Assembly (NCBI GenBank): GCA_029550865.1
Contig: JAKPGM010000079.1
Coordinates: 27,323 to 91,322 of the forward strand
Source: Bacteroidota bacterium
GTDB lineage: Bacteria > Bacteroidota > Bacteroidia > Bacteroidales > DTGW01
Length of the DNA: 64,000 nt
Direction: 5' to 3'
How positions within the stretch are numbered: position 1 is the stretch's first letter; every line of letters starts with the position of its first letter. The position numbers and the translations under genes were made by a program. Positions 10,837-35,204 of the stretch are shown in pieces. The notes below the pieces were generated by a model that did not search any database, had not been told where the DNA came from, and worked only from the letters and a program-made list of their open reading frames with translations.

Positions 10837-10943
10837 GAATGAAACGAGCATGTAGAGCAGTATTCACAAACGAGTATGAAAATAATTTTTCATACCTGCT
10901 TGATTTTAGAGTACAAAACATATTACATGCGAGTTCCATCCGG
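10837..10943 (-). repeat. intergenic inverted-repeat element, copy a (core subfamily 1)
   Basis: GAATGAAACGAGCATGT...ACATGCGAGTTCCATCCGG. Its reverse complement is about 90% identical by eye to copy e. It is followed by an AT-rich segment and TTCGGATGAAAA containing the start codon at 10977. Confidence 0.8.
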
Positions 10944-10976
10944 CCTTTTAAGAAAAATTTTTAAAATTATTTTCGG

Positions 10977-11663
10977 ATGAAAAACGAAACAATCATTCAG
11001 AAGCTTGCAGAAATAAGAGCAATGTTGGAAGCACATGCTTCAGGTGTCATACCTGACATTGAGAAAGACCTAATTTTGAAGAATTTACAAGAAATATACA
11101 GTGCTATTAAATTTTCAGCATCAACACAGGAAAATTTTTCCATAGGTAATGATGCATCGGATTCGACAATAATAGCTGAGCACAATCAGGAAGAACTTCT
11201 GGAGATTGAATCTGACAAACTTGAAGAGCCCGTTCAGATTCAGCAACCTGAGAATTTAAAAACAACAAAAGAAATCCCGAAGAAAGAAGTGATAATAGAG
11301 GAAACAACTCAACCACAGGGACAAAAAACTTTAGCCGATCTGTATGGAACCAGGACACCACTCATGAATGAAGTGCTTGCCGAAAAAATGAAGCGAAAAG
11401 ATTTGTCGACGGTACTCCAGTCGAAACCAATCGATAGTCTGGAACATGCCATCGACATTAATGCAAAGTTTCTTTTTGTTCGTGAGCTGTTCTTCAACAA
11501 TGTGCAATTATTCGAAAAAACCGTACGTATTATTGATTCGGCGGCAACCTTCAACGATGCCTTCAATTACCTACAGCAGCAATTTTTATGGAATTACGAA
11601 TCGGAAGTGGTACAGCGTTTTTTAGAGCTGGTACGCCGACGTTTTATTAAGGATGAAGCATGA
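10977..11663 (+). CDS. hypothetical protein with acidic low-complexity linker
   Basis: 228-aa ORF whose stop overlaps the rsmI start (ATGA at 11660-11663). I recognised no motif. Confidence 0.55.
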   Translation: MKNETIIQKLAEIRAMLEAHASGVIPDIEKDLILKNLQEIYSAIKFSASTQENFSIGNDASDSTIIAEHNQEELLEIESDKLEEPVQIQQPENLKTTKEIPKKEVIIEETTQPQGQKTLADLYGTRTPLMNEVLAEKMKRKDLSTVLQSKPIDSLEHAIDINAKFLFVRELFFNNVQLFEKTVRIIDSAATFNDAFNYLQQQFLWNYESEVVQRFLELVRRRFIKDEA

Positions 11664-12331
11664 GTAAGCTATACATAGTACCCACCCCTATTGGCAATCT
11701 CGAAGATATAACCTTCAGGGCAATTAAAGTGTTGCAAGCAGTAGATTTTGTAATTGCTGAAGATACACGGGTATCGGGGATATTGTTAAAACATTTTCAA
11801 ATAAGCAAACCCATTTATGCCTATCATAAATTCAATGAGCATCAGGTGGTAATGCGTTTACTCGAACGTATACAGGGAGGTGAATCGGCGGCTCTGGTTT
11901 CCGACGCGGGTACGCCAGGTATTTCCGATCCGGGTTTTTTACTGGTAAGGGAGGCCATTAAATCGAATATTGAAGTTGAATGCCTACCAGGCCCCACCGC
12001 ATTTATTCCTGCCCTCATCGTGTCGGGACTTCCTTGCGAACGCTTTTGCTTTGAAGGATTTTTACCACAAAAGAAAGGACGTCAGAAACGTTTACAAGAG
12101 CTGAAAGAAGAAGTACGTACACTGATATTTTATGAATCGCCTCAGCGCGTACACAAAACGTTGGAACAATTGGCAGAATATTTGGGCAGTCATCGTAGAG
12201 CTTCACTTTCACGCGAAATATCAAAAATTCATGAACAAACCCTCCGTGGTACCCTCGAGGAATTAATAGCCACCATCCAGGATAAAAACCTGAAAGGCGA
12301 AATAGTGATTTGTGTTGAAGGGAAAAGATAA
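11660..12331 (+). CDS. rsmI: 16S rRNA (cytidine1402-2'-O)-methyltransferase
   Basis: LYIVPTPIGNLEDITFRAIKVL...AEDTR...SDAGTPGISDPG tetrapyrrole-methylase-fold signature of RsmI. Confidence 0.9.
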   Translation: MSKLYIVPTPIGNLEDITFRAIKVLQAVDFVIAEDTRVSGILLKHFQISKPIYAYHKFNEHQVVMRLLERIQGGESAALVSDAGTPGISDPGFLLVREAIKSNIEVECLPGPTAFIPALIVSGLPCERFCFEGFLPQKKGRQKRLQELKEEVRTLIFYESPQRVHKTLEQLAEYLGSHRRASLSREISKIHEQTLRGTLEELIATIQDKNLKGEIVICVEGKR

Positions 12332-12339
12332 TTGCTTCG

Positions 12340-13041
12340 CTATTTTTCGAGTATATTCAAAATTCCCTCTGCCTTCGTATTGAGTTGCCGGTCGTTTTTT
12401 ACCAGCCAGTTAAGATGCTTTCTACTTTCCTCTACATTGTTTAGCTTGAGCCAGGTAAGCGCAACATACCAATGGGCGCTCGCTGTATAGGTGTTGTACG
12501 GTGCATTAATTACTTTATGAAACGACTGGATTGCATTTTTATAATCCGACACCTCAATACACGATATTCCCTTGTAGAAGGCTGCCATAAGGGTACAATC
12601 GGGGATGGAAGTTTCGACATTGGAAAATAGCGTAATAGCCTTGTAAAATTCCTTATTCTCATATGCCTGTAAGGCCAAACTTAACAGATTACCCTCATTT
12701 CCCTGTTGAGCATCACGGCTCTGATATGTTACAGGATAGGGCTGATAATATGAATAGAAAATATCCTCATAATTTTTTCCCGAAGCAACAGCAGTAAAAC
12801 GAATTACCCCAACAATACCAATCAATATTACTACTGATGCCGCGATGGCAAGATATATGTTTCGCATTCCCCTGTTGTTGGAGAAGAGAGTACGATGTTT
12901 TCTCTCTTTTTCAACATACTCGGTGTGTACCTGTTTTAATACACGTATAAAATCCTGCTTCTGGGTATCCTGAAGTATCAGGTCGATTTCATTTTCGATC
13001 TCCTGATAGGAGACAAACGATAAATCCTGATTTGTTTTCAT
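12340..13041 (-). CDS. single-pass membrane protein with TPR-like domain; possible regulatory partner of the upstream sigma factor
   Basis: 233 aa with one TM helix (IYLAIAASVVILIGIVGVI) followed by TPR-like repeats (ALQAYENKEFYKAITLF, YKNAIQSFHKVI). It lies downstream of the sigma gene on the same strand. Confidence 0.6.
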   Translation of the reverse strand: MKTNQDLSFVSYQEIENEIDLILQDTQKQDFIRVLKQVHTEYVEKERKHRTLFSNNRGMRNIYLAIAASVVILIGIVGVIRFTAVASGKNYEDIFYSYYQPYPVTYQSRDAQQGNEGNLLSLALQAYENKEFYKAITLFSNVETSIPDCTLMAAFYKGISCIEVSDYKNAIQSFHKVINAPYNTYTASAHWYVALTWLKLNNVEESRKHLNWLVKNDRQLNTKAEGILNILEK

Positions 13042-13073
13042 CCGAGAATATTTTTAAATGTTTTTTAAATCGG

Positions 13074-13182
13074 TCGGATGGAACTCGCATGTGATGAGCT
13101 TTCTACACATAGGCAAGTACGAAACTGATAAATATTTTCATACTTGTTTGTGAATACTGCTCTACATGCTCGTTTCATCCGA
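13074..13182 (+). repeat. intergenic inverted-repeat element, copy b (core subfamily 2)
   Basis: TCGGATGGAACTCGCATGT...ACATGCTCGTTTCATCCGA. Its core resembles copy f. Confidence 0.8.
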
Positions 13183-13208
13183 AAATTATTTTAATGTTTT
13201 TAACAAAG

Positions 13209-13310
13209 TCGGATGGAACGTGCATGTAATCAGCCTTTAACCATATTGATTGGCATTTCGGTAAAATTCTCATACCTGTTTGGTTTGTTGCTATACATGC
13301 TCGTTTCATA
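13209..13310 (+). repeat. intergenic inverted-repeat element, copy c (divergent core)
   Basis: TCGGATGGAACGTGCATGT...ACATGCTCGTTTCAT, in tandem with copy b. Confidence 0.7.
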
Positions 13311-13349
13311 TATTTAAAATTTTCAGGCTCCAGTTCTGGTGTAGTCTTG

Positions 13350-13952
13350 TTAATTTTCCAACAGCTTTGACTTTAGCTCGTGGGTTAAGGTGGCAAGTTC
13401 TTTAAATCGTGGGTCTTTCATGATAATATTAATCAATCGTTCTTTGCATCTGAGGCGCCGATTCTTGGTATGCTGTTCGCTACTGTAGTGCATTATCTCA
13501 GTTATTTCGCGAATCGATTTACCCTCAAAAAATAGTCGGATGACTTTCTGACAATCGGCGGTGAGCTTACTAAAATAATGCCATACCAGCTGATGTTTTT
13601 CATTTTGAATCATATTCCACTGTACATCCTCATCGCTCATAATGCGTTCGCTCACTAACTCGGCTGGCACATAGCTATTTTTCTTTCGTAGTAAAGCCAT
13701 CCATACAAGCCTGCAAACACCATAGAGATAGGTATCGAAATAAGCGGTGAGGGTAAGCTGGTTTTCGCGAATTTTATTGTACACGATGATCATCGACTCT
13801 TGAAATACATCAGCCGCCTCATCCTTTGTACCCCCATTTGAAAGAACCAAATTTTCTATAATTTTATAATTCCTCTCGTAAATATGAGAAAGTACAGTAT
13901 GGTCATGCGCACGTATTCCTGCTATTATTTCTTCATTGGAAAACTTTCTCAT
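13350..13952 (-). CDS. RNA polymerase sigma-70 family (ECF-like) sigma factor
   Basis: Region 2-like DEAADVFQESMIIVYNKI and region 4 helix-turn-helix KSIREITEIMHYSSEQHTKNRRLRCKERL. Confidence 0.8.
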   Translation of the reverse strand: MRKFSNEEIIAGIRAHDHTVLSHIYERNYKIIENLVLSNGGTKDEAADVFQESMIIVYNKIRENQLTLTAYFDTYLYGVCRLVWMALLRKKNSYVPAELVSERIMSDEDVQWNMIQNEKHQLVWHYFSKLTADCQKVIRLFFEGKSIREITEIMHYSSEQHTKNRRLRCKERLINIIMKDPRFKELATLTHELKSKLLEN

Positions 13953-13979
13953 GTGCGACTGTACTTAATGTTTGTTCTT

Positions 13980-14018
13980 TAAAAAAAGTAACCCTCTGTA
14001 TTAAAAAAATGTTACTTT
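13980..14018 (-). terminator. candidate rho-independent terminator after gcvP
   Basis: On the minus strand AAAGTAAC (14018-14011) pairs with GTTACTTT (13992-13985), followed by a further T-run. The stem is AT-rich with an 18-nt loop, so the call is weak. Confidence 0.4.
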
Positions 14019-14087
14019 AATCAATAAAGCAATGCTCATTACAAAATTAGCATTATTCATAAAAAAAACAAACTGATAAACAATACT

Positions 14088-16946
14088 TTAAAAGGAGAAC
14101 CCACTGCACGAACACACCAGATTTCGGTCCCCATATGCATCGTTAATACGGGAAGAATAGGGCCAAAACTTGTTTTCCCTAACCCAGGGTAGCGGAAAAG
14201 CGGCTTTTATCCGGGAATAGGGAAATGACCAGTTATCGGCGGCTATCATCTCAGCGGTGTGAGGGGCATTCTTAAGCACATTGTTGTTTTTCTCATATTT
14301 TCCAGCGGCTATTTCTTCAATTTCGTCATAAATACAATACATCGCCTCAATGAATCTTTCGAGCTCAGCCAGGGATTCGCTTTCGGTAGGCTCAATCATC
14401 AGAGTGCCCGGTACCGGGAATGAAACGGTTGGCGCATGATATCCAAAGTCCATCAAACGTTTAGCAATGTCTATTTCTGTAACATCAGCTGTTTTTTTAA
14501 AGTCGCGGCAATCGACAATAAATTCATGGGCAACGGTATTATTTTTACCGGTGTATACAATTTTATACTTTTTACTTAACCGATTAGCCAGATAATTGGC
14601 TTTCAGGATAGCCATCTGGGTAGCATTGTGTAATCCGGATGCGCCCAGCAAACGGATATAGGCATAGGATATTTGAAGAATGTATGCGCTACCCCAGGGC
14701 GAAGCGGCAACAGCGTGAATACCATTTCGTCCTCCTACCGCAGCAAGTGGATGGGTAGGCAGAAATTCCACCAGATGGTCGGCTACGCAAATGGGGCCTG
14801 CACCAGGTCCCCCTCCTCCATGAGGTATTCCAAAGGTTTTATGCAAATTGAGGTGACATACATCGGCACCAATAAGCGCTGGTTGCGTAATACCTACCTG
14901 TGCATTCATGTTAGCACCGTCCATGTATACCTGTCCGCCATACTGATGTACTATGTCGCATATCTCGGTTACAGCTTCCTCAAATACACCATGCGTAGAA
15001 GGATAGGTAATCATTATACAACACAGGCTATCCTTATACTGTTCGGCTTTTTGCCGAAGGTCGTCCACATCGATATTCCCCTGCTGATCGCATTTCACCA
15101 CTACCACCTGCATACCTGCCATTGCGGCACTGGCAGGATTGGTACCATGCGCCGACGAAGGAATAAGAACAACCTTACGATTGCCCTGCCCAATATGCTG
15201 CTGATACTTACGAATAACCATCAAACCTGTATATTCACCTGCAGCACCTGAATTTGGCTGAAACGATATATGTGGAAAACCTGTTATCTCGCAAAGATAT
15301 TCTCCCAGGTCGTGCATCATCTGGTGATAGCCTTCCACCTGATCGAGGGGCACGAAGGGATGTATATTAGCCCATTCGGGCCAGCTAAGGGGAAGCATCG
15401 TAGTGGCAGCATTGAGCTTCATGGTACACGAGCCCAACGAAATCATGGAGTGGGTAAGCGAAATATCGCGTCGTTCAAGCTTTTTAATGTAGCGCATCAT
15501 CTCCGTCTCGGTATGATAACGCTGAAACACCTCCTGCTGCATAAATGCATCGGTACGCAATAGCTCGGCAGGAATACGCACCTCTTCCCTCAAACCTTGT
15601 AACGGAAGTATGCGTTTAAAATTGGCTACTGCAAAAAGTTCGATGAGCTGATTCAAATCATCGAGCGTGGTTGTTTCATCGAGGCTAACCGAAACGCGAT
15701 ATTCATCGATATACCGAATGTTTATCTGCCTTTCCTCGGCGATGGGCTTCAATTCACTGGAACGCAGCTCGTTGGGCAATTGAATGGTAAGAGTATCGAA
15801 ATAAGAAGCATTTAAAATGGTATAGCCCAACTGTGAGAGTGAATGAGCTAATGTAGAAGTAGAAAAGTGGATTTTACGAGCAATAGCCTTCAAACCTTCT
15901 GGGCCATGATACACGGCATACATTCCTGCCATAATAGCCAGCAATGCTTGAGCTGTACAAATGTTCGAGGTAGCACGTTCGCGTTTGATATGCTGTTCAC
16001 GGGTCTGTAGCGCCATACGCAAAGCTGGCCTACCCTGTGTATCGATGCTTACCCCAATAATACGACCCGGAAGGTTACGTTTATAGCGCTCGTTTGCAGC
16101 AAAATAGGCAGCATGGGGACCCCCATATCCAATAGGTACCCCAAAACGTTGGGTTGAACCCAGTACCACATCGGCACCCCATCGACCCGGAGGAACCAAT
16201 AGCGCCAGACTTAAAAGATCGGCTGCTACACTTACTTGAATATTATGCTCGTGAGCCTTATCTATTAAAGTTTGATACGAATGAATTTCACCATATACAT
16301 TAGGATATTGAAGCAAACAGCCAAAAACATCGTCGGAAAATGCAAAATCCTGATAATTTCCCTTAATAATCTTAATTCCAAAAGGTTCTGCACGAGTAAG
16401 TAGCACATCGTAGGTCTGAGGGAAAACCCCTTCATCAACAAAAAAGGTATTGGCATTGCTTTCAACCTGTTGAGCAGTACGGCAATTGTAAAACATCAGC
16501 ATAGTCTCGGCAGCAGCGGTAGCCTCGTCGAGCAAAGAAGCATTGGCAAGCGGCATGCTGGTAAGCTCCATCACCATCGTCTGAAAATTAAGCAGGGCTT
16601 CTAACCTACCCTGCGATATCTCTGCCTGGTAAGGGGTATAGGAAGTATACCACGAAGGGTTTTCAAATATGTTGCGCTGAATAACCGAAGGCATATAAGT
16701 GTTGTAATAGCCCAAACCTATGTAGGTTTTAAATAGCTTGTTTTTACTAGCTATCTCCCAGATATGTGCAAGGTATTCGGATTCGCTCAGCGCATCGGGC
16801 AACCGTAACGGACGCTGTATACGAATACCCGACGGTACAGTTTTATCTATTAGCTCTTCTATCGACTGAAGTCCCAGCGAATTTAACATGACATCTGCTT
16901 CCTGGCTGCTACCTGTCAAACGTTCAGAGAAATTATTAACGCTCAT
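14088..16946 (-). CDS. gcvP: glycine dehydrogenase (aminomethyl-transferring), glycine cleavage P protein
   Basis: 952-aa single-chain P protein with the PLP region CHLNLHKTFGIPHGGGGPG. Confidence 0.97.
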   Translation of the reverse strand: MSVNNFSERLTGSSQEADVMLNSLGLQSIEELIDKTVPSGIRIQRPLRLPDALSESEYLAHIWEIASKNKLFKTYIGLGYYNTYMPSVIQRNIFENPSWYTSYTPYQAEISQGRLEALLNFQTMVMELTSMPLANASLLDEATAAAETMLMFYNCRTAQQVESNANTFFVDEGVFPQTYDVLLTRAEPFGIKIIKGNYQDFAFSDDVFGCLLQYPNVYGEIHSYQTLIDKAHEHNIQVSVAADLLSLALLVPPGRWGADVVLGSTQRFGVPIGYGGPHAAYFAANERYKRNLPGRIIGVSIDTQGRPALRMALQTREQHIKRERATSNICTAQALLAIMAGMYAVYHGPEGLKAIARKIHFSTSTLAHSLSQLGYTILNASYFDTLTIQLPNELRSSELKPIAEERQINIRYIDEYRVSVSLDETTTLDDLNQLIELFAVANFKRILPLQGLREEVRIPAELLRTDAFMQQEVFQRYHTETEMMRYIKKLERRDISLTHSMISLGSCTMKLNAATTMLPLSWPEWANIHPFVPLDQVEGYHQMMHDLGEYLCEITGFPHISFQPNSGAAGEYTGLMVIRKYQQHIGQGNRKVVLIPSSAHGTNPASAAMAGMQVVVVKCDQQGNIDVDDLRQKAEQYKDSLCCIMITYPSTHGVFEEAVTEICDIVHQYGGQVYMDGANMNAQVGITQPALIGADVCHLNLHKTFGIPHGGGGPGAGPICVADHLVEFLPTHPLAAVGGRNGIHAVAASPWGSAYILQISYAYIRLLGASGLHNATQMAILKANYLANRLSKKYKIVYTGKNNTVAHEFIVDCRDFKKTADVTEIDIAKRLMDFGYHAPTVSFPVPGTLMIEPTESESLAELERFIEAMYCIYDEIEEIAAGKYEKNNNVLKNAPHTAEMIAADNWSFPYSRIKAAFPLPWVRENKFWPYSSRINDAYGDRNLVCSCSGFSF

Positions 16947-17126
16947 CTGGAAATAATTTTAATATTTTAAAAAATAGTTGAAAGAAACTCTCAGTACAGC
17001 ATAGCCTTTCCCAGGCATACCGGTTATGATTTTACTTGATTTTGATTACTGTAAAACTGCGTCGTTTCATTCATTGATGTTAATTTCAAGAATTCTTTCA
17101 AAACTAAGATATTTCAATTTACTGCA

Positions 17127-17765
17127 TCATGCGATAAAAGGGTTATATTTCAACTCGTAAGCAATAGTTGTATGTGGACCGTGGCCTGGGAATACAAGAG
17201 TATCTGGAGGTAGGGTGAGTAATTTTTCACGAATATGGGACATCAAGGTTTCATAGTCGCCCCCCATCAAATCGGTACGACCGATACTGCCTTTAAATAA
17301 AGCATCGCCAGTAAAAATACAATTATCGGTTGGACAATATACGGCCATGCCGGCTGGAGAATGACCCGATATGGTCAACACTATGGCCTCGGTTTTTCCC
17401 AGCATCACCGTATCATTTTCCCCTACCAGGTTCCATTGGCCAGTATACGGTTCGTAGGGTAAGCTAAAAAGCATGGCCTGTTGGGGCGCTGTCTGAATAA
17501 AATCGAGTTCATCTCGATGCACTACAGGCTGCAATCGATACCAACTACATATTCTTTCAAGTCCAAGGAGATGATCGACATGCCCGTGGGTTACGATAAT
17601 GCCGCTGGGCGTAAGTTGCTGCGATGCAATATAATTTTTCAGCGTCTCAAACTCCTCGAGTGTACTACAAGCTGGATCAATAATGGTACAATGCTTGCTT
17701 TCGTCCCACACTAAATAGGTATTGACCTGAAACGGGTTAAATACAAAAGTTTTTACTGTAATCAC
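17127..17765 (-). CDS. MBL-fold metallo-hydrolase (glyoxalase II-like)
   Basis: THGHVDH metal-binding motif, 212 aa. A 4-nt overlap with pcm suggests an operon. Confidence 0.85.
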   Translation of the reverse strand: MITVKTFVFNPFQVNTYLVWDESKHCTIIDPACSTLEEFETLKNYIASQQLTPSGIIVTHGHVDHLLGLERICSWYRLQPVVHRDELDFIQTAPQQAMLFSLPYEPYTGQWNLVGENDTVMLGKTEAIVLTISGHSPAGMAVYCPTDNCIFTGDALFKGSIGRTDLMGGDYETLMSHIREKLLTLPPDTLVFPGHGPHTTIAYELKYNPFIA

Positions 17766-22325: not shown

Positions 22326-22428
22326 CTATGAAACGAGCATGTATAGCGCCAAACACAAATCTGTGTGAAAATCAGTTTACTTATCTGTTTGCTAATGATT
22401 CAGAACATGTTACATGCGAATTTCATGC
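22326..22428 (-). repeat. intergenic inverted-repeat element, copy d (divergent)
   Basis: CTATGAAACGAGCATGT...ACATGCGAATTTCATGC. It accounts for the spurious N-terminal extension MKRACIAP... of track ORF 22328. Confidence 0.7.
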
Positions 22429-22486
22429 TGCTAAAGGCGCAAAATATCGTCCAAACATTATTAAAACATTAAAAAAATATTTACAG

Positions 22487-23164
22487 ATGAAGAATAACGT
22501 ATTACTCATAGCATTATTATTGATAACCACCGCCACGGCAGGGTGGTCGCAAAAATATGCAAGAAATCAGTTTGTGGTATTTTCTTACACTGCCGATATC
22601 GACGATAGGGTAAAGAAGGAACTGAGTGCTTACCAGAACCTGATAAACTATCAGCCACAGAAAAAGCAAACGGCTGTGGAGGCAGTGCTAATACATTCTT
22701 TTTATCAGATTTTTACTAAGTTGCTTGAAGATTCACTTCTTGTTTATTTTCTTCCACCAGAGAGTATGGGGGACAAAGCAAGTTATACCGATTATGGTTA
22801 TCCTGATATAGTGATCCAAAAGGCAATCAGGCTCTCGGATGTGAAATATTTTATGAAAATAGAGCTTTCTATTGAAAATAGTAAGTACGATGAAAGGGGT
22901 AATCGTTTGACTGCCGATGTATTTTTGCCGGTTGTGAATGTTTCGGTAAGCATATACAATAAATTTGGTTTTAATCCAATACAAACGGCCGAGGGGCAAT
23001 CGGTTGCTTCGGCACCTATTCAGGTCAAAGAAAGCTTTCTGGCGGGATTAAATTTTGTATCACCTAACATCAAGGCTGGGGCAAATGAGGAGACGATGAA
23101 GGTATTGTTAGAACGATGTGCTTTTAACGCTTTGTACAGCATTAAATATAAAAAAATAAAGTAG
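22487..23164 (+). CDS. secreted hypothetical protein
   Basis: ATG 22487 gives signal peptide MKNNVLLIALLLITTATAGWSQ. The upstream 53 codons of the track ORF are repeat-element sequence. Confidence 0.55.
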   Translation: MKNNVLLIALLLITTATAGWSQKYARNQFVVFSYTADIDDRVKKELSAYQNLINYQPQKKQTAVEAVLIHSFYQIFTKLLEDSLLVYFLPPESMGDKASYTDYGYPDIVIQKAIRLSDVKYFMKIELSIENSKYDERGNRLTADVFLPVVNVSVSIYNKFGFNPIQTAEGQSVASAPIQVKESFLAGLNFVSPNIKAGANEETMKVLLERCAFNALYSIKYKKIK

Positions 23165-28104: not shown

Positions 28105-28164
28105 AGCGGAAACCCTTCAGACAGGTACAATATTGTTGAAAAACGATTAACGGTTTTACTGAAG

Positions 28165-28195: not shown

Positions 28196-28226
28196 CAAGC
28201 TACAAAAAGTAAGTGAATAGACCGTT

Positions 28227-29906
28227 ATGAGTGACGATAAAAAAATTATTTTTTCATTGGTGGGGGTAGGAAAGACCTATCCTCCCCATAAGAGGGTTTT
28301 GAACAATATATACCTGTCGTTTTTTTATGGTGCCAAGATAGGGATTATTGGGTTAAACGGGAGTGGCAAATCAACCCTGATGCGTATTATTGCTGGGGTT
28401 GAAAAGAACTTCGATGGACAGGTGGTAATGTCTCCGGGTTATACCATAGGATATCTGGAGCAAGACCCTCAGCTCGATCCTGCAAAGACGGTAAGGCAGA
28501 TAGTCGAGGAAGGCGTGCAGAATGTTGTAGCTTTGTTAAAAGAATATGAAGAGATCAACCTGCGCTTTGCCGATCCTAACCTATCGGCCGATGAGATGGA
28601 TAAACTCATTGCACGTCAGGGTGAGCTTACCGATTTGATTGAGCAACACGATGCCTGGAATCTTGATAATAAGCTGGAAGTAGCCATGGATGCGCTTCGC
28701 TGCCCCGATGGCGATACCCCGGTAAATGTTCTTTCGGGCGGTGAAAAACGTAGGGTGGCACTTTGCCGCTTGTTGTTACAAGAACCTGATATTTTGTTGC
28801 TTGACGAGCCTACCAACCATCTCGATGCCGAAAGTGTGGAATGGCTCGAACAACATCTGCAGCAATATAAAGGTACTGTTATCTGTATTACACACGATAG
28901 GTATTTTCTCGATCATGTGGCTGGTTGGATACTCGAACTCGACCGGGGTGAGGGTATTCCTTATCAGGGCAACTATTCGTCGTGGCTGGAACAGAAAGCG
29001 CAGCGACTGGCTCAGGAAGAGAAACAGGAAAGCAAACGACGCAAAACCCTTGAACGAGAATTGGAATGGATACGAATGGCGCCTAAAGCCCGTCAGGCAA
29101 AAGGTAAGGCACGACTTAATGCATACGAAAAACTTTTGAACGAGGACGTTAAGCAAAAGGAAGAGCGTCTGGAGATATTTATTCCCAATGGTCCACGCCT
29201 GGGAAGCAAGGTAATTGAGGCACGCAATGTGACAAAAATATATGGCGATCGAATTTTATTTGAAAACCTCAATTTCGATTTACCTCCTGGAGGTATTGTT
29301 GGCGTTATCGGTCCAAATGGTGCCGGTAAAACCACCCTTTTCCGTTTGATTATGGGTTACGAAAAGCCCGATGCGGGTGAATTTATTGTGGGCGAGACGG
29401 TTAAAATTGGGTATGTCGACCAGGAACACACGGTTATTGACCCCGAAAAAACAGTTTTTGAGGTTATTTCTGGTGGTCTGGATTATATTACTATTGGCAA
29501 TCGACAGGTTAATGCAAGGGCTTATGTGGCTCGGTTTAACTTTACGGGTGCCGATCAAGAAAAAAAATGCGGTGCCCTGTCGGGTGGGGAACGAAATCGC
29601 TTACATCTGGCTCTAACGTTGAAGGAAGAAGCAAACGTTCTTCTGCTCGACGAACCTACCAACGATATCGATGTTAACACGCTACGAGCTCTGGAAGAAG
29701 GTCTCGAAAATTTTGCAGGCTGCGCAGTTATTATTTCCCACGATCGCTGGTTCCTCGACCGTGTTGCAACTCATATCCTGGCTTTTGAGGATGATGCTCA
29801 GGTAGTATTTTTTGAGGGCACCTTCAGTGAATATGAGGAACACAAACGCAAGCGTCTTGGAGATTTTACCCCACACCGTGTGCGATATAAGAAGTTGACA
29901 CGTTAA
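28227..29906 (+). CDS. ettA: energy-dependent translational throttle protein EttA (ABC-F)
   Basis: 559 aa with two ABC cassettes ([18 protein letters not shown]; [16 protein letters not shown]) and the EttA-type linker. Confidence 0.95.
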
Positions 29907-29938
29907 ACAAAGTTTATCCTGAGCCTAAAAAAAATATT

Positions 29939-31330
29939 ATGACTATACCTTCAATTCCAAAAGGAACACGCGACTTTGGTCCTACCGAAGTGGCTCGACG
30001 TAATTATATATTCAATACCATACGACAGGTTTTTGAATGTCATGGTTTTCAGCCAATTGAAACCCCAGCAATGGAAAACCTTTCAACCTTGCTGGGAAAA
30101 TATGGCGATGAGGGCGATAAACTACTTTTTAAAATTCTCAATTCAGGCGATTTTATTGGTGATTTACCTGCCTCGTCCTTCATTTCCGCCAATGCCTCTT
30201 TGCTTTCGACCAAGATATGTGAAAAAGGATTACGCTACGATCTTACGGTTCCTTTTGCCCGATATGTGGTACAACATCGTAACGAAATTGTTTTCCCCTT
30301 TCGCCGTTATCAGATTCAGCCGGTATGGCGTGCCGATAGGCCGCAGAAAGGGCGTTACCGCGAGTTTTATCAGTGCGATGCCGATGTCATTGGCAGTACC
30401 TCGTTGTTGAATGAGTACGAACTTATTCAGATTTTCGACGAAGTCTTTCAAAAATTGCAAATCAATGTGCGAATAAAAATTAATAACCGCAAGATACTGG
30501 CGGGTATGGCCGAAATTCTCGGTTATCCCGATAAACTCGTTGCCATAACTACGGCAATAGATAAAATTGAAAAGATAGGTTTCGACAGAGTAAAGGAAGA
30601 ATTGATAGCAGCCGGATTATCGGAAGAAGCCCTTTCGAAGCTGCAGCAGCTTTTGCAAATGACGCGACAGTCGAATGCGGAAAAAGTAGAGTTCATGCGC
30701 GAATGGCTTGCAGGTTCTGCAATTGGAAATACTGGTATCGACGAACTCGAAACCCTGTTGCAATTCTTTCAGCCTGGGGAATTACAAAATGTGCTTGAAT
30801 TTGACCTTTCGCTGGCTCGTGGGCTCAACTATTATACCGGTACCATATTTGAGGTTAAAGCTTTAAATGTGGAAGTTGGAAGCATAGCAGGCGGTGGACG
30901 CTACGATAATCTTACAGGAATTTTTGGACTCGAGGGTGTGTCGGGTGTGGGAATCTCGTTTGGTGCCGATCGTATTTACGATGTGCTCTTGCAATTGAAC
31001 AAGTTTCCTCAAAAACTTCTTGAAACCACCTGCGTGATGTTTGTGAATTTTGGGCTCGCCACAGTGCAGTATCTGTTGCCCATTATCAAACAATTGCGAC
31101 AGCAGGGTGTTTCAGCAGAGCTATACCCCGAAGAGGCTAAAATTAAAAAACAATTTAGCTATGCCAATGCTCGAAATATTCCTTATGTGGCAATAGCCGG
31201 TGATGAGGAAATGGCAAAAAATCAGATCATGATCAAACACATGGCGTCTGGGAATCAGCAAGCCGTCGACAAGAAGGAATTCGTGGGGCATTTCATTAGC
31301 TTGTTACAATCATCCCGTTCGGTCGAATAG
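29939..31330 (+). CDS. hisS: histidine--tRNA ligase
   Basis: [33 protein letters not shown] and GGGRYDNL class II motifs. Confidence 0.95.
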
Positions 31331-31407
31331 TAGCTTCGGTAGGCACTACGCTGATAGGCTTTTGGTAGAACAACAAGTTAATTCAGGCACTCACAAAACA
31401 AATATTC

Positions 31408-32475
31408 ATGATCGAACGTGCCGATTTTCAAAATCGCCTTATCCAATGGTATTTGGAGAATGGGCGCGATTTGCCCTGGAGAAAAACCAACAATCCTTAC
31501 CACATCTGGATTTGTGAAATTATCCTGCAGCAAACCAGGGTTAATCAGGGTATGCCTTATTATTTTCGTTTTATCGATCGTTTTCCCGACGTTGCTTCCC
31601 TTGCCCGCGCTTCGGAGGATGAAGTGCTGGCTTACTGGCAAGGATTGGGTTATTATAGCAGGGCGCGAAATCTGTTGCTGGCTGCTCGCCAGATACAAAA
31701 AGATTACGGCGGAACTATTCCTGCCGATTATAATCAACTGCTTAAAATAAAAGGCGTTGGCAAATATACCGCAGGCGCTATTGCATCCATGGCCTTTAAT
31801 CTTCCATACCCTGCTATCGATGGTAACGTGTTTCGGGTGTTATCCCGGCTGTTCAATGATTCAACGCCTATCGATGGAAGTAATGCGTATAAATATTTCG
31901 AAAAACTGCTTCAACCAATATTCGACCCTGATCGTCCTTCGCTATTCAATCAGGCAATCATTGAATTGGGGGCTCTGGTATGTTTACCGCTCAATCCCAA
32001 TTGTGATTCTTGCCCGGTAAGCAACTATTGCCAGGCTCATAAACATGCTACTCAATCGTTATTGCCGGTAAAACAGAAAGCACTGCAGCCTAAAAAACGA
32101 TATTTTTATTATTTCGTCCTGCACGACAACGAATACATCATTCTGCGTAAACGAACAGATAATGATATCTGGAAGATGTTATACGATTTTCCATTGTTGG
32201 AGTATCCAGAAAAATTGGATGAACCCCTTGAACAACTAAAGCAAGCTGAATGGCCTGCACCATTGCTTCTTAGCTATGCTGCCGAGTTGAGCCACCCGGT
32301 ACGACATTTATTAACGCATCAACAGCTGTATATCTGGTTTGTACGTGTACATGTAGACCAGATACCTTCAATGCTGCCTCCCAACCATGTAAAAGTTCCA
32401 ATAAAAAAACTCAGCGAATGGCCTATTCCTAAAGTAATTGACAATTATTTAAAAAAAGAATTTGACTTGAGTTGA
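31408..32475 (+). CDS. mutY: A/G-specific adenine DNA glycosylase
   Basis: HhH-GPD region (LLKIKGVGKYTAGAI), the Fe-S cluster loop CLPLNPNCDSCPVSNYC and a NUDIX-like C-terminal domain. Confidence 0.92.
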   Translation: MIERADFQNRLIQWYLENGRDLPWRKTNNPYHIWICEIILQQTRVNQGMPYYFRFIDRFPDVASLARASEDEVLAYWQGLGYYSRARNLLLAARQIQKDYGGTIPADYNQLLKIKGVGKYTAGAIASMAFNLPYPAIDGNVFRVLSRLFNDSTPIDGSNAYKYFEKLLQPIFDPDRPSLFNQAIIELGALVCLPLNPNCDSCPVSNYCQAHKHATQSLLPVKQKALQPKKRYFYYFVLHDNEYIILRKRTDNDIWKMLYDFPLLEYPEKLDEPLEQLKQAEWPAPLLLSYAAELSHPVRHLLTHQQLYIWFVRVHVDQIPSMLPPNHVKVPIKKLSEWPIPKVIDNYLKKEFDLS

Positions 32476-32526
32476 TAATTTTTTTACCTTTCATCCGAAA
32501 TTTTTTTTTTTAATTTTTTACAGTGG

Positions 32527-32634
32527 TCGGATGGAACTCGCATGTAATATGTTTTGTACTCTAAAATCAAGCAGGAATGGAAAATTATTTTCATAGTCGT
32601 TTGTGAATTCTGCCATACATGCTCGTTTCATCCG
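32527..32634 (+). repeat. intergenic inverted-repeat element, copy e (core subfamily 1)
   Basis: TCGGATGGAACTCGCATGTAATATGTTTTGTACTCTAAAATCAAGCAGG...ACATGCTCGTTTCATCCGG, about 90% identical by eye to the reverse complement of copy a. Confidence 0.8.
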
Positions 32635-32656
32635 GAAAAAATATTTAAAAGATGTC

Positions 32657-32736
32657 ACGCTAAGAACGCAAAGCAACCGCAAAATTCGCAGAGATTTTCT
32701 TCGCGTTCTTAGCGTAAAACTTAGCGTTCTTTGCGT
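32657..32736. repeat. GC-richer imperfect palindrome built on GCGTTCTT(A/T)GCG-type motifs
   Basis: ACGCTAAGAACGCAAAG (32657-32673) faces CTTCGCGTTCTTAGCGT (32699-32715; 16/17 complementary), followed by a further direct partial copy TTAGCGTTCTTTGCGT (32721-32736). Confidence 0.6.
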
Positions 32737-32786
32737 TTTTAAATATGGTCAATTACAAACTCTTTTGTCCGAAAGTAATCTAATGG

Positions 32787-32890
32787 TCGGATGGAACTCG
32801 CATGTGATGAGTTTCCTACACATGGCAAGTACGAAAGTGATAAATATTTTCATAGTCGTTTGTGAATAATGTAATACATGCTTGTTTCTC
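32787..32890 (+). repeat. intergenic inverted-repeat element, copy f (core subfamily 2, decayed 3' end)
   Basis: TCGGATGGAACTCGCATGTGATGAGTTTCCTACACATGGCAAGTACGAAAGTG...ACATGCTTGTTTCTC, matching copy b. Confidence 0.75.
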
Positions 32891-32940
32891 AAAAAATTAT
32901 AGGCTTATATTTTTATAAAAATTCTTAAATACAAACTATT

Positions 32941-33393
32941 ATGTCGGTAAACAAAGTAATACTTATTGGAAATGTTGGGAAAGATCCCGAAGTACGTTAT
33001 ATCGAAAACGGGACTCCCGTATGTACATTGCCTGTCGCTACAAGCGAGAGCTATGTGAATAAAGCAGGCGAACGAGTAACCACCACCGAGTGGCACAATG
33101 TAGTTTTGTGGCGTTCATTGGCCGAAGTAGCCCAAAAATATGTTAAAAAGGGCACTCAGGTGTATGTCGAAGGTCGCATACGTAGCCGTTCGTACGATGA
33201 CAAGGATGGTAACAAGCGCTATACGACCGAAATTATTGCCTATACCTTTCAGCTGTTGGGTCGTCGTCAGGATGATGCAACGGGAGTAGCAACAGGGGCA
33301 GCCTCGCCTGAAGTTGCCTCCGAAGTTAAAGAACCACTTACTTCCGAGGATTTCGCTCTTCCTCCTAGCGAATCCGACGATTTGCCTTTTTAG
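32941..33393 (+). CDS. ssb: single-stranded DNA-binding protein
   Basis: OB-fold N-terminus MSVNKVILIGNVGKDPEVRY...TEWHNVV, a flexible tail and the acidic tip DDLPF. Confidence 0.95.
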   Translation: MSVNKVILIGNVGKDPEVRYIENGTPVCTLPVATSESYVNKAGERVTTTEWHNVVLWRSLAEVAQKYVKKGTQVYVEGRIRSRSYDDKDGNKRYTTEIIAYTFQLLGRRQDDATGVATGAASPEVASEVKEPLTSEDFALPPSESDDLPF

Positions 33394-33470
33394 ATGACCT
33401 CTTAATGTTTAGCTCATAATAATGGCTATTCTTTAGCATTTGCTGGTATAGTGCGCTTAAAATTTTAAGA

Positions 33471-33520
33471 CCCCCGAACGCAGTGTATGCATTTATTCCT
33501 GCACGAAGGGGTTTTATTTT
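33471..33520 (+). terminator. candidate rho-independent terminator after ssb
   Basis: CCCC..GCAG (33471-33482) pairs with CTGC..GGGG (33499-33511) around an internal loop, followed by TTTTATTTTGTTTT. Confidence 0.45.
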
Positions 33521-33589
33521 GTTTTAAAGAATCAACTCATGGAAGTTTTTCTTGAGATTTTTATTATGGAAATTGTAAGTTACATTGCC

Positions 33590-33597
33590 TAAATTTG
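33590..33597 (+). promoter_or_regulatory. candidate -7 promoter box (TAAATTTG) upstream of gldE
   Basis: Exact TAnnTTTG match 24 nt upstream of ATG 33621. Confidence 0.3.
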
Positions 33598-33620
33598 TAA
33601 ATGTTTTTACCGACTAATCC

Positions 33621-34943
33621 ATGGAAGAGGGAAGTTTTTTTTATGTCTACATCATTGAGGTATTAGCCATTCTTATTTTATTATTTTTATCGGCGTTATT
33701 TTCGGCCAGTGAAGTTGCATTTTTTTCCATACGCCCGGCAGATCGTAAACAATTAGAATCCCAAAAATCTCAGGCGTCAGTTAATATTCTTAAGTGCCTT
33801 GAAAATCCCGAAAAACTTCTGGCTACAATACTGATACTGAACAATACGGTAAACATTGGTATTGTTATCCTTTCAACTTATATAACTGCAGGATTACTTG
33901 ATCATCAGGCGTACCCTCTTTTAAGTTTTATAGTCGAAGTAGTGGTCATTACTTTCGTTATCGTGCTGGTAGGCGAGATTATTCCCAAAATATTTGCTAC
34001 ACGCAATAATATGCGGATAGTGTATTTTATGGCTGTTCCATTGCATTTTTTTATGTTAATACTAAGCCCAATAGTATATCCGCTTACGCGTTCGTCGGTA
34101 TTTGTTCGCAGGCGAATGCAGCGAATAGGTTCTGGCATTTCGGTCGATGACTTGTCGAATGCCCTTGAAATTACTTCAGATTCGCTTAAGGACGAGCGTA
34201 AAATGCTCGAGGGTATTGTGAAATTTGGCAATATCGAGGTATGCCAGATTATGAAACCCCGCTTGGATATTGTGGCTGTCAATTGGCGCGACGATTTCGT
34301 CAAAGTGCTTTCTTTGGTCGTTGAGTCGGGCTATTCCAGGCTACCAGTGTACGAAGATACGCTCGATAACATCAAAGGGATTTTGTTGGCCAAAGACCTT
34401 TTTCCCTATGTTAACGAAAAGTCCGATTTTCACTGGCAGGGTCTGGTAAAGCCTGCCTATTTTGTCCCCGAAACCAAAAAGATCGATGACCTGCTTACCG
34501 AGTTTCAACGAAACAAAATACACCTGGCCATTGTAGTGGATGAGCATGGTGGCACCAGCGGCCTGGTTACCATGGAAGATATACTCGAAGAAATTGTTGG
34601 AGAAATTGAGGACGAGTCGGATATTGAAGAGGAAAAACTTTACAAAAAATTGTCGGCCAACAGCTGGTTGTTCGAAGCTAAAATCTCTATGAATGACTTC
34701 TGTAAAGTCCTCCAGATATCCTATGATAATTTTCAAAATATTTCGGGAAACTACGAAACCTTGGCGGGGTTTATTCTTGAACTAACTGGAGAAATTCCAC
34801 CGAAGGGTACAAAAGTTAGCTTCAATAACCTTACCTTTGAGGTCGAAAATGTCGATAAAAAACGTATCCGACAGGTGAAGGTTTATATCAATAGCTCTGA
34901 TCATGGGAAAGGCAGTTTAAAAAATTCTAAGGTACACCATTGA
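33621..34943 (+). CDS. gldE: CNNM/CBS-pair/CorC-HlyC membrane protein, gliding-motility-associated GldE type
   Basis: N-terminal DUF21-type TM region, CBS pair and CorC_HlyC C-terminus. The ssb-gldE-gldD order matches what I recall as described for Flavobacterium johnsoniae. Confidence 0.8.
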   Translation: MEEGSFFYVYIIEVLAILILLFLSALFSASEVAFFSIRPADRKQLESQKSQASVNILKCLENPEKLLATILILNNTVNIGIVILSTYITAGLLDHQAYPLLSFIVEVVVITFVIVLVGEIIPKIFATRNNMRIVYFMAVPLHFFMLILSPIVYPLTRSSVFVRRRMQRIGSGISVDDLSNALEITSDSLKDERKMLEGIVKFGNIEVCQIMKPRLDIVAVNWRDDFVKVLSLVVESGYSRLPVYEDTLDNIKGILLAKDLFPYVNEKSDFHWQGLVKPAYFVPETKKIDDLLTEFQRNKIHLAIVVDEHGGTSGLVTMEDILEEIVGEIEDESDIEEEKLYKKLSANSWLFEAKISMNDFCKVLQISYDNFQNISGNYETLAGFILELTGEIPPKGTKVSFNNLTFEVENVDKKRIRQVKVYINSSDHGKGSLKNSKVHH

Positions 34944-35033
34944 TAAGGGTATTTGCTAAATTTCATAATTAGCATAGTAGATGTCGAGGAGAGGGAGTAA
35001 CAATGTCGAAAATTATATCATGATCAATAACAT

Positions 35034-35134
35034 AAATGAGGACGTATTACTCCATTTACAAACGGTAGGAAAATATTTTCATTTATATGCTTAACAATGT
35101 TTTAGTAAGTTCAAGACATGCGAGTTTCATTAGA
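35034..35134 (-). repeat. intergenic inverted-repeat element, copy g (degenerate)
   Basis: ...TTTACAAACGGTAGGAAAATATTTTCAT...ACATGCGAGTTTCATTAGACC aligns with copy a. The outer motif is mutated to TCGGATTAAA at 35159-35168. Confidence 0.5.
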
Positions 35135-35204
35135 CCCTGGAAATATTTATCATTGTTTTCGGATTAAATAAAAGTATTGTTGCAAATAATATTGTGAAAT
35201 TTCC

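Follow-up and report, generated by a model that had tools for sequence, protein, structure and literature searches.

Our analyses have identified a family of short hairpin repeats in a 64-kb stretch of DNA (the whole stretch analysed, hereafter the window), and these repeats are probably copies of a short non-autonomous insertion element that occupies the hexamer ATGAAA in a fixed orientation, most often at the start of a gene whose product begins with Met-Lys. Seven repeats are found in the window (viz. 10837-10943, 13074-13182, 13209-13310, 22326-22428, 32527-32634, 32787-32890, and 35034-35134), all of them intergenic, as an earlier sequence-only reading had reported. The repeat ends are 17 nt long; the end GGATGGAACTCGCATGT has 9 matches in the window at 3 or fewer mismatches, against 0.06 expected by chance, and the end ACATGCTCGTTTCATCC has 10 against 0.15, with the matches for both ends falling at the seven reported places. 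A HMM built from foreign copies recovers the same seven places in the window and no others (E 2e-14 to 7e-3), its weakest matches being copies d and g, in agreement with the earlier description of copy g as decayed. The individual copies, with their full units, are as follows.

Copy a, 10839..10982 (+), best preserved (HMM E 2e-14): 5' box ATGAAA at 10839-10844, hairpin at 10839-10939, CCG and A-rich spacer at 10940-10976, second ATGAAA at 10977-10982, the ATG at 10977 opening a 228-aa ORF.
Copy b, 13036..13178 (-): 5' box at 13178-13173, hairpin down to 13078 and, below the spacer, a second ATGAAA at 13041-13036 that is the start of a 233-aa TPR gene.
Copy c, 13179..13309 (-): in tandem with and upstream of copy b, whose 5' box is its downstream ATGAAA; CACG replaces CGAG in the 3' arm.
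Copy d, 22328..22492 (+), diverged (HMM E 3e-3): 3' arm ACATGCGAATTTCATGC, spacer lengthened to about 60 nt, ATGAAG at 22487 as the start of a 225-aa gene.
Copy e, 32489..32631 (-), orphan: the downstream ATGAAA at 32494-32489 opens a 21-codon ORF only and lies 14 nt past the stop of mutY, which is on the opposite strand.
Copy f, 32763..32890 (-), orphan: 5' box decayed to GAGAAAC and downstream box to CGGACAAAA.
Copy g, 35036..35168 (+), decayed (HMM E 7e-3): 5' box ATGAGGAC, 3' arm ACATGCGAGTTTCATTA, downstream box decayed to CGGATTAAA; the gldD start is at 35205, 37 nt further on.

The unit has the layout 5'-ATGAAAC-GA-GCATGT / variable core / ACATGC-GA-GTTCCAT-CCG / A-rich spacer / CGG-ATGAAA. 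Its two arms, ATGAAAC-GA-GCATGT and ACATGC-GA-GTTCCAT, form an imperfect 15-16-bp hairpin, interrupted by a fixed A.C and a tandem G.A/A.G mismatch, and they enclose a core that varies from 30 to 75 nt; past the 3' arm come CCG and then some 21 nt of A-rich tail, closed by CGG, with A at -13 to -11 and -6 relative to the downstream start. Among 89 copies fetched with the arms unconstrained, Watson-Crick pairing per position is 92-99%, except at the second-innermost pair (16/54), where it is 80% with a further 10% G.U. Several arm variants (viz. CATGT/ACATG, CATGAT/ATCATG, and CATAT/ATATG, as well as the form CACATGATTG/CAATCATGTG at locus L158) preserve the pairing. Since the unit extends about 30 nt past the 3' arm and its two ends are not inverted repeats of each other, it is not a textbook MITE.

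Much of the sequence-only description of these repeats is borne out, including the pairing of the ends (15 of 17 positions, one of the remainder being G:T in the orientation then chosen), the bracketing of the full unit (130-145 nt) by direct repeats, and the mosaic cores. Over 134 nt, copies a and e show 86% complementarity although the genes beside them are unrelated, which points to recent spread within the genome, and copies b and f have a separate core module in common (88%). The AT-rich segment and second TTTCATCCGA that had been ascribed to every copy can be seen at copies a, b, c, and e, whereas those of d, f, and g have decayed. A point missed was that this bracketing repeat is the reverse complement of TCGG-ATG-AAA, which contains the start codon and the second codon of the downstream gene.

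The association with gene starts holds across the family. Of 171 unique copies, 135 have a long ORF that begins at the last ATG of the unit, and in 130 of these 135 the protein starts with MK. The window has approximately 20 ATGAAA hexamers away from coding sequence and elements, and only about 6 of them are gene starts. The downstream genes are functionally unrelated and without a common theme, 118 of their proteins containing 154 Pfam families, each in 3 proteins at most. In the 5' flanks of the elements the frequency of A is 0.52-0.66 at -13 to -10 and 0.49 at -3, and 568 ordinary starts in the same loci have the same A peak (0.50-0.60), in agreement with the A-rich initiation pattern of Bacteroidia (Baez et al., 2019, PMC6847099). 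This resemblance indicates that the flank is a native start region. One example is the 5' flank of copy a, AAAATTTAAGTTGA, which is similar to the start region AAAAATTTAAGG, followed by ATG, of a homologue in locus L220; we take the two to be orthologous.

Syntenic sites with and without the element exist, and hence the insertion polymorphism that had been proposed as a check is present. In the empty relatives the native start region runs directly into ATGAAA and the gene (at locus L218, CCTGAAAAACTCTAAAAT followed by ATGAAAACTAATCAGGA; L221 is alike), and the spacer corresponding to copies b and c is only 44-50 nt. In the window, one or two units are bracketed by duplicated ATGAAA, with the native start region retained upstream, the filled site reading CCTGAAAATTTTAAATAT, ATGAAA, copy c, ATGAAA, copy b, and ATGAAAACAAATCAGGA in succession. 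No element occurs anywhere in loci L218-L221. Further empty and filled pairs are L064 and L095, with proteins 91% identical, and L097 and L191. The polarity of these sites (insertion here or loss there) is assigned by parsimony from two or three outgroups, and the finding that codon 2 is not AAA in several empty relatives counts against a firm assignment of the exact target and of the exchange point. For homologue pairs at 80-95% identity the element is in both members in 34 of 35, a count to which ascertainment bias applies, and it is also in both members of some pairs at 56-79% identity; this persistence at orthologous genes, together with near-invariant arms across families, would also fit a selected host function.

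The repeat family is widespread in one order of Bacteroidota; genomes and metagenomes of Marinilabiliales and other Bacteroidales yielded more than 200 copies. The exact 18-mer of the 3' arm is found at more than 91 genome loci among the matches listed (viz. Prolixibacteraceae, a member of the Marinilabiliales, Marinilabilia, Anaerophaga, Mariniphaga, Tangfeifania, Sunxiuqinia, and Bacteroidales MAGs), and a pattern with both arms free is found at 120 metagenome loci.

For an insertion element of this kind, the mobile unit would run from ATGAAAC to the terminal CGG and after insertion would have an ATGAAA hexamer on each side. The native translation-initiation region of the gene would stay with the upstream hexamer, and the downstream hexamer, behind the A-rich tail of the element, would become the new gene start, so that the element would replace the initiation region of the interrupted gene and may affect its translation. 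Since no promoter motif was seen in it, the element is presumably transcribed within a 5' leader or operon spacer, where the hairpin would form in the mRNA and, by prediction, CAUCCG of its 3' arm would pair with the CGGAUG that contains the new start. The near-invariant hairpin may be recognised by a recombinase or transposase acting in trans, the substrate perhaps being folded single-stranded DNA and the exchange taking place inside the 6-bp ATGAAA identity. As the sequence-only reading had also observed, no transposase is present in the window: its 39 ORFs (38 of at least 180 aa and the 150-aa SSB gene) contain no transposase or integrase Pfam domain, and in the region from 54.1 to 64 kb a single closed ORF reaches 180 aa, without a Pfam match. 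No autonomous parent with a distant 5' arm was found among the genome loci anchored on the 3' arm.

Our results do not support the suggestion of the sequence-only reading that the repeats are a structured RNA and not simply a mobile element at the DNA level. The repeat has no Rfam match. Formal covariation is weak because the hairpin arms are nearly invariant, with 95.9% of cells paired and only 3 pairs changed on both sides. The suggestion had drawn on wobbles and on two changes in copy d. The G-to-A and C-to-T changes in copy d are indeed present and both keep pairing in the orientation then chosen, whereas the opposite strand gains one pair and loses one. Apart from one fixed position, wobbles do not favour the chosen strand, the counts on the gene-sense strand opposite to it being 20 G.U and 11 A.C; the chosen orientation is antisense to the following gene in 5 of the 7 copies of the window and in approximately 79% of the family.

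A more specific proposal, to which we give perhaps one chance in several, is that the element is primarily a cis-acting regulatory RNA of the 5' leader, i.e. a portable translational switch; this role and a mobile origin can coexist. CAU of the 3' arm would pair either with the upstream AUG, in the full hairpin, or with the AUG of the gene (CAUCCG:CGGAUG), and gene initiation would require the latter helix to be melted, the trigger possibly being ribosomes from the native upstream AUG, temperature, or a hairpin-binding factor. In predicted ensembles the element AUG is paired with probability 0.88, compared with 0.55 for 250 ordinary starts (p 3e-31), and the region from -20 to +10 around it is more open (0.40 vs 0.47). 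The CAUCCG:CGGAUG helix is present in RNAalifold and minimum-energy folds of the consensus and of copies a, b, c, and e, and CGG is conserved at -3 to -1 even though Bacteroidia favour A at -3. In the L054/L075 subfamily, where CCG pairs locally (CCGCCAaCTGGCGG), the CGG before ATG is absent. The upstream frame stops at the UGA of AUGA, overlapping the gene start, in 73 of 171 copies, and the tandem G.A in the CGAG/CGAG context is a stable RNA motif. This structural evidence is, however, wholly predicted, and the lack of a theme among the downstream genes and of an Rfam match counts against a regulatory RNA. Moreover, eight copies have CCA instead of CCG, which breaks the sense-strand pair, an inner helix that had been proposed, TTCGT/ACGGA, does not hold (unpaired in 30 and 24 of 83 cells), and with RNA parameters the antisense-strand hairpin folds better than the sense-strand one (-14.8 vs -11.5 kcal/mol).

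It is improbable that the repeats are integron-type attC sites or miniature cassettes, folded as single-stranded DNA and moved by an integron-like tyrosine recombinase at secondary sites. By inspection, the element shares with attC sites (Cury et al., 2016, PMC4889954) an imperfect hairpin of two boxed inverted repeats with an unpaired 2x2 spacer flanked by the triplets AAC and GTT (ATGAAAC-GA-GCATGT ... ACATGC-GA-GTTCCAT), a variable terminal part (30-75 nt, compared with 20-100 nt in attC sites), and a unit boundary within the outer box, and the 6-bp identity at both junctions fits conservative exchange. However, the hairpin has symmetric mismatches and no extrahelical bulged bases, its boxes and spacer together cover only 15-16 bp, its core is much shorter than that of attC sites, and the outer boxes match RYYYAAC/GTTRRRY at only 5 of 7 positions. 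The element is dispersed at gene starts, without cassette ORFs, in arrays of two units at most, and no integrase is present in the window.

Somewhat less probable again is a DNA-level promoter or operator cassette like the Neisseria REP2/CREN repeat, with the arms serving as regulator or sigma-factor sites. The position directly upstream of ORFs and an arm sequence near-invariant beyond the needs of pairing are in its favour, and TGAAAC and GGAAC resemble what we take to be ECF sigma -35 motifs. Nevertheless, the consensus sense strand contains neither the -7 (TAnnTTTG) nor the -33 (TTTG) motif of Bacteroidia, and none occurs at a fixed upstream distance; an arm spacing of 30 to 75 nt is unsuited to paired operator half-sites, and copies b and c sit where the spacer of relatives is only 44-50 nt, which suggests an operon. 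Least probable of all, and not supported, is that the element functions through translation of a conserved leader peptide (MKRAC...): in copies a, b, and e the frame from the 5' ATG stays open for 37-41 codons, the common form of the element has a 30-codon frame ending at the overlapping AUGA, and the upstream AUG is in a native initiation context, but copies a and e differ by 6 non-synonymous changes and 1 synonymous change, all three frames are used for the 3' arm among the copies (54/25/13), a stop lies inside the hairpin in 32 of 171 copies and the 5' ATG is missing in 15 of 171, and the overlapping-stop layout is not enriched when length classes rather than copies are counted.

The start-codon insertion element that we favour shares features with several known systems, of which the Neisseria REP2 repeat, likened to it by description only, appears to be the closest analogue. 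REP2 (CREN) and similar inverted-repeat sequences of Borrelia plasmids (summarised in Delihas, 2011, PMC3184786) are likewise dispersed repeats of about 100-150 nt directly upstream of unrelated ORFs, which bear the initiation signal and ATG of the gene that follows, contain inverted repeats internally, and lack a transposase gene. REP2, however, has a promoter and a Shine-Dalgarno sequence, no terminal inverted repeat, and a co-regulated gene set, whereas the element has no recognisable promoter, an A-rich Bacteroidia-type initiation region in place of the Shine-Dalgarno sequence, a long hairpin from its 5' end to a subterminal arm, duplicated ATGAAA at its junctions, documented empty sites, and hosts in the Marinilabiliales and related Bacteroidales.

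MITEs (viz. Correia, ERIC, and Nezha) resemble the element in being short, non-coding, and multi-copy, with inverted repeats forming a long stem-loop, junctions marked by direct repeats, cores that are mosaic or vary in length, filled/empty polymorphism, and, usually, co-transcription with neighbours. Classical MITEs differ in having inverted repeats at both extreme ends and a DDE-transposase target duplication of variable sequence; the element continues for about 30 nt past its 3' arm, its flanking repeat is always ATGAAA, its orientation is constant with respect to the target, and no parent IS was seen. REP/REPIN sequences with RAYT and palindromes derived from IS200/IS605 are also extragenic hairpin repeats, whose movement as single-stranded DNA is attributed to an enzyme encoded at another site, with sequence-specific insertion beside a short target and long-term persistence, but the element has neither the short G+C-rich palindromes and conserved tetranucleotide of REPs nor the two separate subterminal hairpins of IS200/IS605 ends, and no Y1 transposase was seen in the window. 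The palindromic elements of Rickettsia are comparable selfish repeats in mutual tolerance with expressed gene regions; they lie in frame within coding sequence and are translated, whereas the element lies at the start codon and would replace the initiation region. By supplying an A-rich Bacteroidia-type initiation region and a start codon of its own, the element would allow the gene that it interrupts still to be made.

Our analyses show that the repeats in the window belong to a real and widespread family of hairpin insertion elements, which are specific for gene starts of the form ATGAAA and carry a replacement initiation region. The window has a G+C content of about 41%, carries a gldD gene and derives from a Bacteroidota genome in an assembly from anaerobic-digester-type metagenomes. 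The 17-nt ends described in the sequence-only reading have 9 and 10 matches in it at up to 3 mismatches, against 0.06 and 0.15 in shuffled sequence, and these matches fall at all seven of the places reported for the repeat. An HMM built from foreign copies identified the same seven places and no others, with copies d and g being the weakest. Oriented to read 5'-ATGAAACGAGCATGT ... ACATGCGAGTTCCATCCG-3', the copies are as follows.

10839-10982, plus strand, copy a, facing the next gene
13036-13178, minus strand, copy b, facing the next gene
13179-13309, minus strand, copy c, facing the next gene
22328-22492, plus strand, copy d, facing the next gene
32489-32631, minus strand, copy e, in the mutY-ssb spacer, antisense to both genes
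32763-32890, minus strand, copy f, in the mutY-ssb spacer, antisense to both genes
35036-35168, plus strand, copy g (decayed), facing the next gene

Every copy is located between ORFs, and the mosaic nature of the cores noted earlier is also seen by repeat detection: copies a and e show 86% complementarity across 134 nt, and copies b and f have in common a different core module (88%). The short direct repeat thought to bracket each unit, TTTCATCCGA, proved to be the reverse complement of TCGG-ATG-AAA; at copies a and b, the gene that follows begins with this ATG. No polymorphism was observed for the mutY-ssb spacer among assemblies with an identical SSB, where every contig reaching mutY has the same arrangement and represents the same species. 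Between copies e and f, an unrelated palindromic unit (32655-32740; CGCTAAGAACGC, 33 nt, GCGTTCTTAGCG, then a partial third arm TTAGCGTTCTTTGCG) occurs once in the window and may represent another small repeat family. A public gene call of 37 aa, with no Pfam hit, overlies copy g (positions 5041-5154 of the fetched locus L212, about 34981-35094 of the window by offset) and may be an artefact of the ATG-rich sequence of the element. The only closed ORF of 180 aa or more in the region 54082-64000 lies at 60434-60994 on the minus strand and has no Pfam match; a very long ORF there probably extends beyond the window end.

Each unit consists, in order, of an ATGAAAC box, a hairpin, CCG, an A-rich spacer and CGG, followed by a second ATGAAA. 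The inverted repeat is formed by the 5' end and a subterminal arm, and about 30 conserved nt (CCG, A-rich spacer, CGG) beyond the 3' arm are part of the unit, whose ends as read from the sequence (CGAGC... and ...TTCGG) form no inverted repeat. The common form is shorter than the window copies and comprises a 60-nt hairpin (ATGAAACGAGCATGT-TCGTTAAACACAAACACGGATGAATATCTC-ACATGCGAGTTCCAT), after which come CCGGC, some 21 A/T-rich nt and (T/A)CGG-ATGAAA. Among subfamilies the arms are kept while the core and spacer vary, and the core, 30-75 nt long, accepts hairpin insertions. In the long variants of the window, a 35-45-nt insert pairs with an internal GTATGAAAA box (viz. GTATGAAAA-TAAT-TTTTCATAC in copy a and AAGTATGAAA/TTTCGTACTT in copy b). 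The extra module (10868-10893 in copy a, 13122-13151 in copy b) is complementary to the internal (G)TATGAAA box, so that a third AUG-containing box is locked in its own helix of 9-10 bp, which fits the avoidance of free AUGs near Bacteroidia starts described by Baez et al. (2019; PMC6847099). In many foreign copies, a short G+C-rich mini-hairpin is present at one shared point of the core, just after GGATGAAT (fetched loci L171, L173, L174, L050/L067/L073, L054, L047/L057/L064, and L177; e.g., CCCGATGTACATCGGG, GTCCCGATTTGTCGGGA, GCGGAAATCCGC, CCGCCAGATGGCGG); it resembles either a tiny palindromic insertion of a second kind, nested in the first, or a site where expansion is favoured. Loci L054 and L075, from the Bacteroidota MAG Y22_30dBSe2.bin.34, constitute a divergent subfamily that keeps the arms and has a local CCGCCAaCTGGCGG hairpin directly after the 3' arm; its CCG pairs locally and its downstream ATG is without a preceding CGG.

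Further copies, for which a search had been suggested, occur in other genomes. When one genome per species was searched with an exact 18-mer from the 3' arm, the matches listed comprised more than 91 loci, the named sources of which were Prolixibacteraceae (a family within Marinilabiliales), Marinilabiliaceae, Anaerophaga thermohalophila, Marinilabilia salmonicolor, Mariniphaga, Tangfeifania, Sunxiuqinia, and Prolixibacter. Bacteroidales or Bacteroidota MAGs contributed many of the loci, and one match, in a Pseudomonadales genome, was due to chance. A metagenome scan in which both arms were left free added at least 120 more loci. The 8-kb foreign loci usually have one copy each; copies are single or paired and occur at ordinary chromosomal genes, and cassette arrays were not seen.

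That these elements have been inserted is shown by the comparison of empty and filled sites, and the insertion polymorphism suggested as a check was found at several places. Syntenic loci were obtained through homologues (61-66% identical) of the protein encoded downstream of copy a; they share the gene order 228-aa gene, TP_methylase gene, TPR gene, sigma-70-like gene, gcvP, and in those relatives only 44-50 nt separate the sigma gene from the TPR gene. The empty sites read ...CCTGAAAAACTCTAAAAT|ATGAAAACTAATCAGGA in L218 and ...CCTGAAAAATTCAAAAAT|ATGAAAACTAATCAGGA in L221, whereas the filled site in the window reads ...CCTGAAAATTTTAAATAT|ATGAAA-[copy c]-CGG|ATGAAA-[copy b]-CGG|ATGAAAACAAATCAGGA. 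Hence, two units are located exactly at the start codon, with the native upstream region preceding the first. The site of copy a is likewise filled in the window and empty in L218-L221, its flank AAAATTTAAGTTGA|ATGAAAC corresponding to AAAAATTTAAGG|ATGAGAAAAG in L220, and the element was detected nowhere in these four loci. Two further pairs are L064 (filled) and L095 (empty), with proteins 91% identical and the native start ATGAAACGAATAC, and L097 (filled) and L191 (empty), whose flanks are recognisably orthologous. ATGAAA is present on both sides of the element and once in the empty sites, and it is the same hexamer at every copy, which is unusual for a target duplication. Of 35 homologue pairs at 80-95% identity, in a sample biased to carriers, 34 have the element in both members; this persistence at orthologous genes leaves room for a role beneficial to the host.

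Of 171 unique copies (among the matches listed), 135 have a downstream ATG with which a long ORF begins, and 130 of these 135 products start with MK; the other copies are followed by mini-ORFs such as ATGAAATAA or by another tandem unit. In the window, 6 of 42 genes start with ATGAAA and about 14 further ATGAAA hexamers are present in non-coding DNA outside the elements, so that the 79% of copies at gene starts exceeds a random use of non-coding hexamers. This excess is explained either by additional target requirements or by better persistence of the copies at gene starts. The downstream proteins are unrelated to one another (154 Pfam families in 118 proteins, each family in 3 or fewer), which excludes a pathway-specific riboswitch and speaks against a regulon. 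Judging by their N-termini, enolase, FabD, Dxr, MTHFR, cysteine synthase, superoxide dismutase, response regulators and many signal-peptide proteins seem to be among them. The 228-aa protein after copy a (10977-11663) has no Pfam domain; a search yielded only 12 homologues (P0001-P0012), which are Bacteroidales MAG proteins where the source is named, and its gene precedes the TP_methylase gene in the four relatives examined.

The flank upstream of the element is the native initiation region of the gene. In the 80 nt ahead of the 5' ATGAAAC, G and C are depleted, and A reaches 0.52-0.66 at -13 to -10 and 0.49 at -3; ordinary gene starts from the same loci (n=568) have the same A peak (0.50-0.60). 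This is the initiation signature of Bacteroidia, for which A at -14 to -11, -6 and -3 has been described (Baez et al., 2019; PMC6847099). The element's own spacer has A at -13 to -11 and -6, with CGG at -3 to -1. Motif inspection found neither TAnnTTTG nor TTTG on the sense strand of the element consensus, and TAnnTTTG (the -7 motif) has no positional peak at a fixed distance before the element. Since inspection revealed no promoter motif in the element and the site of copies b and c is an operon spacer of 44-50 nt in relatives, transcription of the sense strand is presumably shared with the gene.

When folded through the start, the sense RNA is predicted to form the inner hairpin and a helix, CAUCCG(G):(U)CGGAUG, that holds the AUG of the gene and closes the A-rich loop. 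The predicted pairing probability of the AUG is 0.88 in 134 element copies against 0.55 in 250 ordinary starts (p 3e-31), while the wider start region is predicted to be less structured in the element copies (0.40 vs. 0.47). Any regulatory effect of the element on translation is a prediction; the replacement of CCG by CCA in eight copies counts against a strict need for the start-codon helix. The frame opened by the upstream ATG ends at an overlapping AUGA in 73 of 171 copies (among the matches listed), and coupling from the native start is possible in the main subfamily. Selection for this overlapping stop was rejected, as it is frequent per copy and not enriched by independent length class. 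A conserved leader peptide was also rejected: stops interrupt the frame in 32 of the 171 copies, the ATG is missing from 15, each of the three frames is used to read the 3' arm, and the differences between copies a and e are mostly non-synonymous.

Pairing was counted in 89 copies fetched with the arms unconstrained. The 15 hairpin positions are Watson-Crick paired in 92-99%, except for position 3, where an A.C is fixed (89%), positions 7 and 8, which form a fixed tandem G.A/A.G (92-98%), and the second-innermost pair 16/54 (80% Watson-Crick and 10% G.U; G-C 68, G.U 9, A-U 3). Variation that preserves pairing is mostly at the inner end (viz. CATGT/ACATG, CATGAT/ATCATG, CATAT/ATATG, and, in locus L158, CACATGATTG/CAATCATGTG). 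The covariation test suggested in the sequence-only reading found 95.9% of cells paired, but changes on both sides in three pairs only, because the arms are too conserved for strong covariation. An inner helix TTCGT/ACGGA with loop AAACACAAAC appeared compensatory by eye in a few copies and is not supported by the counts. A search of the 64-kb window against Rfam gave no hit at gathering thresholds and, in E-value mode, chance-level hits only (best E 0.17, to a microRNA model). Neither wobbles (besides the fixed A.C, 20 G.U vs. 11 A.C on the sense strand) nor folding energies single out one acting strand; the antisense strand is favoured with RNA parameters (-14.8 vs. -11.5 kcal/mol) and neither strand with DNA parameters. 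That the arms are nearly invariant across families suggests recognition by a conserved protein.

Among described repeats, the closest kinds are the REP2 (CREN) repeats of Neisseria and similar sequences of Borrelia, as summarised by Delihas (2011; PMC3184786). Like these, the element lies directly upstream of ORFs and supplies an initiation signal and the ATG; it differs in having no recognisable promoter by motif inspection, in its architecture, in its precise insertion at ATGAAA, and in that its downstream genes are not functionally linked (154 Pfam families, 118 proteins). With classical MITEs the element shares direct repeats at the junctions and filled and empty sites, but the inverted repeats that MITEs have at both extreme ends are absent. 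Among the genome loci listed for the 3' arm, none has the 5' arm at a distance or looks like an autonomous parent IS, and the reported absence of a transposase holds for the window, where no transposase or integrase domain is found in 39 ORFs (38 of at least 180 aa and the 150-aa SSB gene). The layout of the hairpin is reminiscent of integron attC sites, which combine boxes, an unpaired spacer with AAC/GTT on its two sides, and a terminal part that varies (PMC4889954). By inspection, the element has AAC-GA-...-GA-GTT, with a spacer of only 2x2 nt and boxes that fit the consensus at 5 of 7 positions; its departures from pairing are symmetric mismatches (positions 3, 7 and 8) with no bulge in 89 copies, and it has no cassettes or arrays and no integrase domain in the window ORFs. 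In view of the lack of extrahelical bases, cassettes and an integrase, we do not file it under attC. The REP/REPIN-RAYT systems have short G+C-rich palindromes, a conserved 5' tetranucleotide and a RAYT gene. The arms of the present element are individually neither palindromic nor G+C-rich, and no Y1 transposase domain was found in the window ORFs. A limited literature search revealed no specific description of such an element in Bacteroidota or Marinilabiliales, although an earlier description is possible.

A further, speculative proposal, which we regard as rather unlikely, is that the element is a self-neutralising mobile unit with a translational relay, and/or that the hairpin with its invariant A.C and tandem G.A is a new folded single-strand recombination site, analogous to attC but distinct from it, that targets the start codons of Bacteroidota. 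In such a relay, one hairpin CAU may pair with either of the two AUGs created by insertion. Ribosomes loaded at the native initiation region of the gene would translate into the element, melt CAUCCG:CGGAUG and then pass to the start supplied by the element, and the expression of the interrupted gene would remain under its original control.

If confirmed, this family would represent a mobile element whose target is the very start codon and whose survival depends on the replacement initiation region that it brings along, a strategy unlike those of intergenic MITEs and of in-frame palindromic elements. For a gene behind the element, two ATGAAA hexamers some 90-140 nt apart are candidate starts, and start-site prediction could be misled by them. 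The near-invariant hairpin points to a conserved partner protein. To our knowledge, Shine-Dalgarno sites are absent in Bacteroidia. The element, with an A-rich loop closed by a helix predicted to hold the AUG, is a compact and naturally portable initiation cassette, which provides a test case for how Bacteroidia ribosomes choose their starts and possibly a genetic part.
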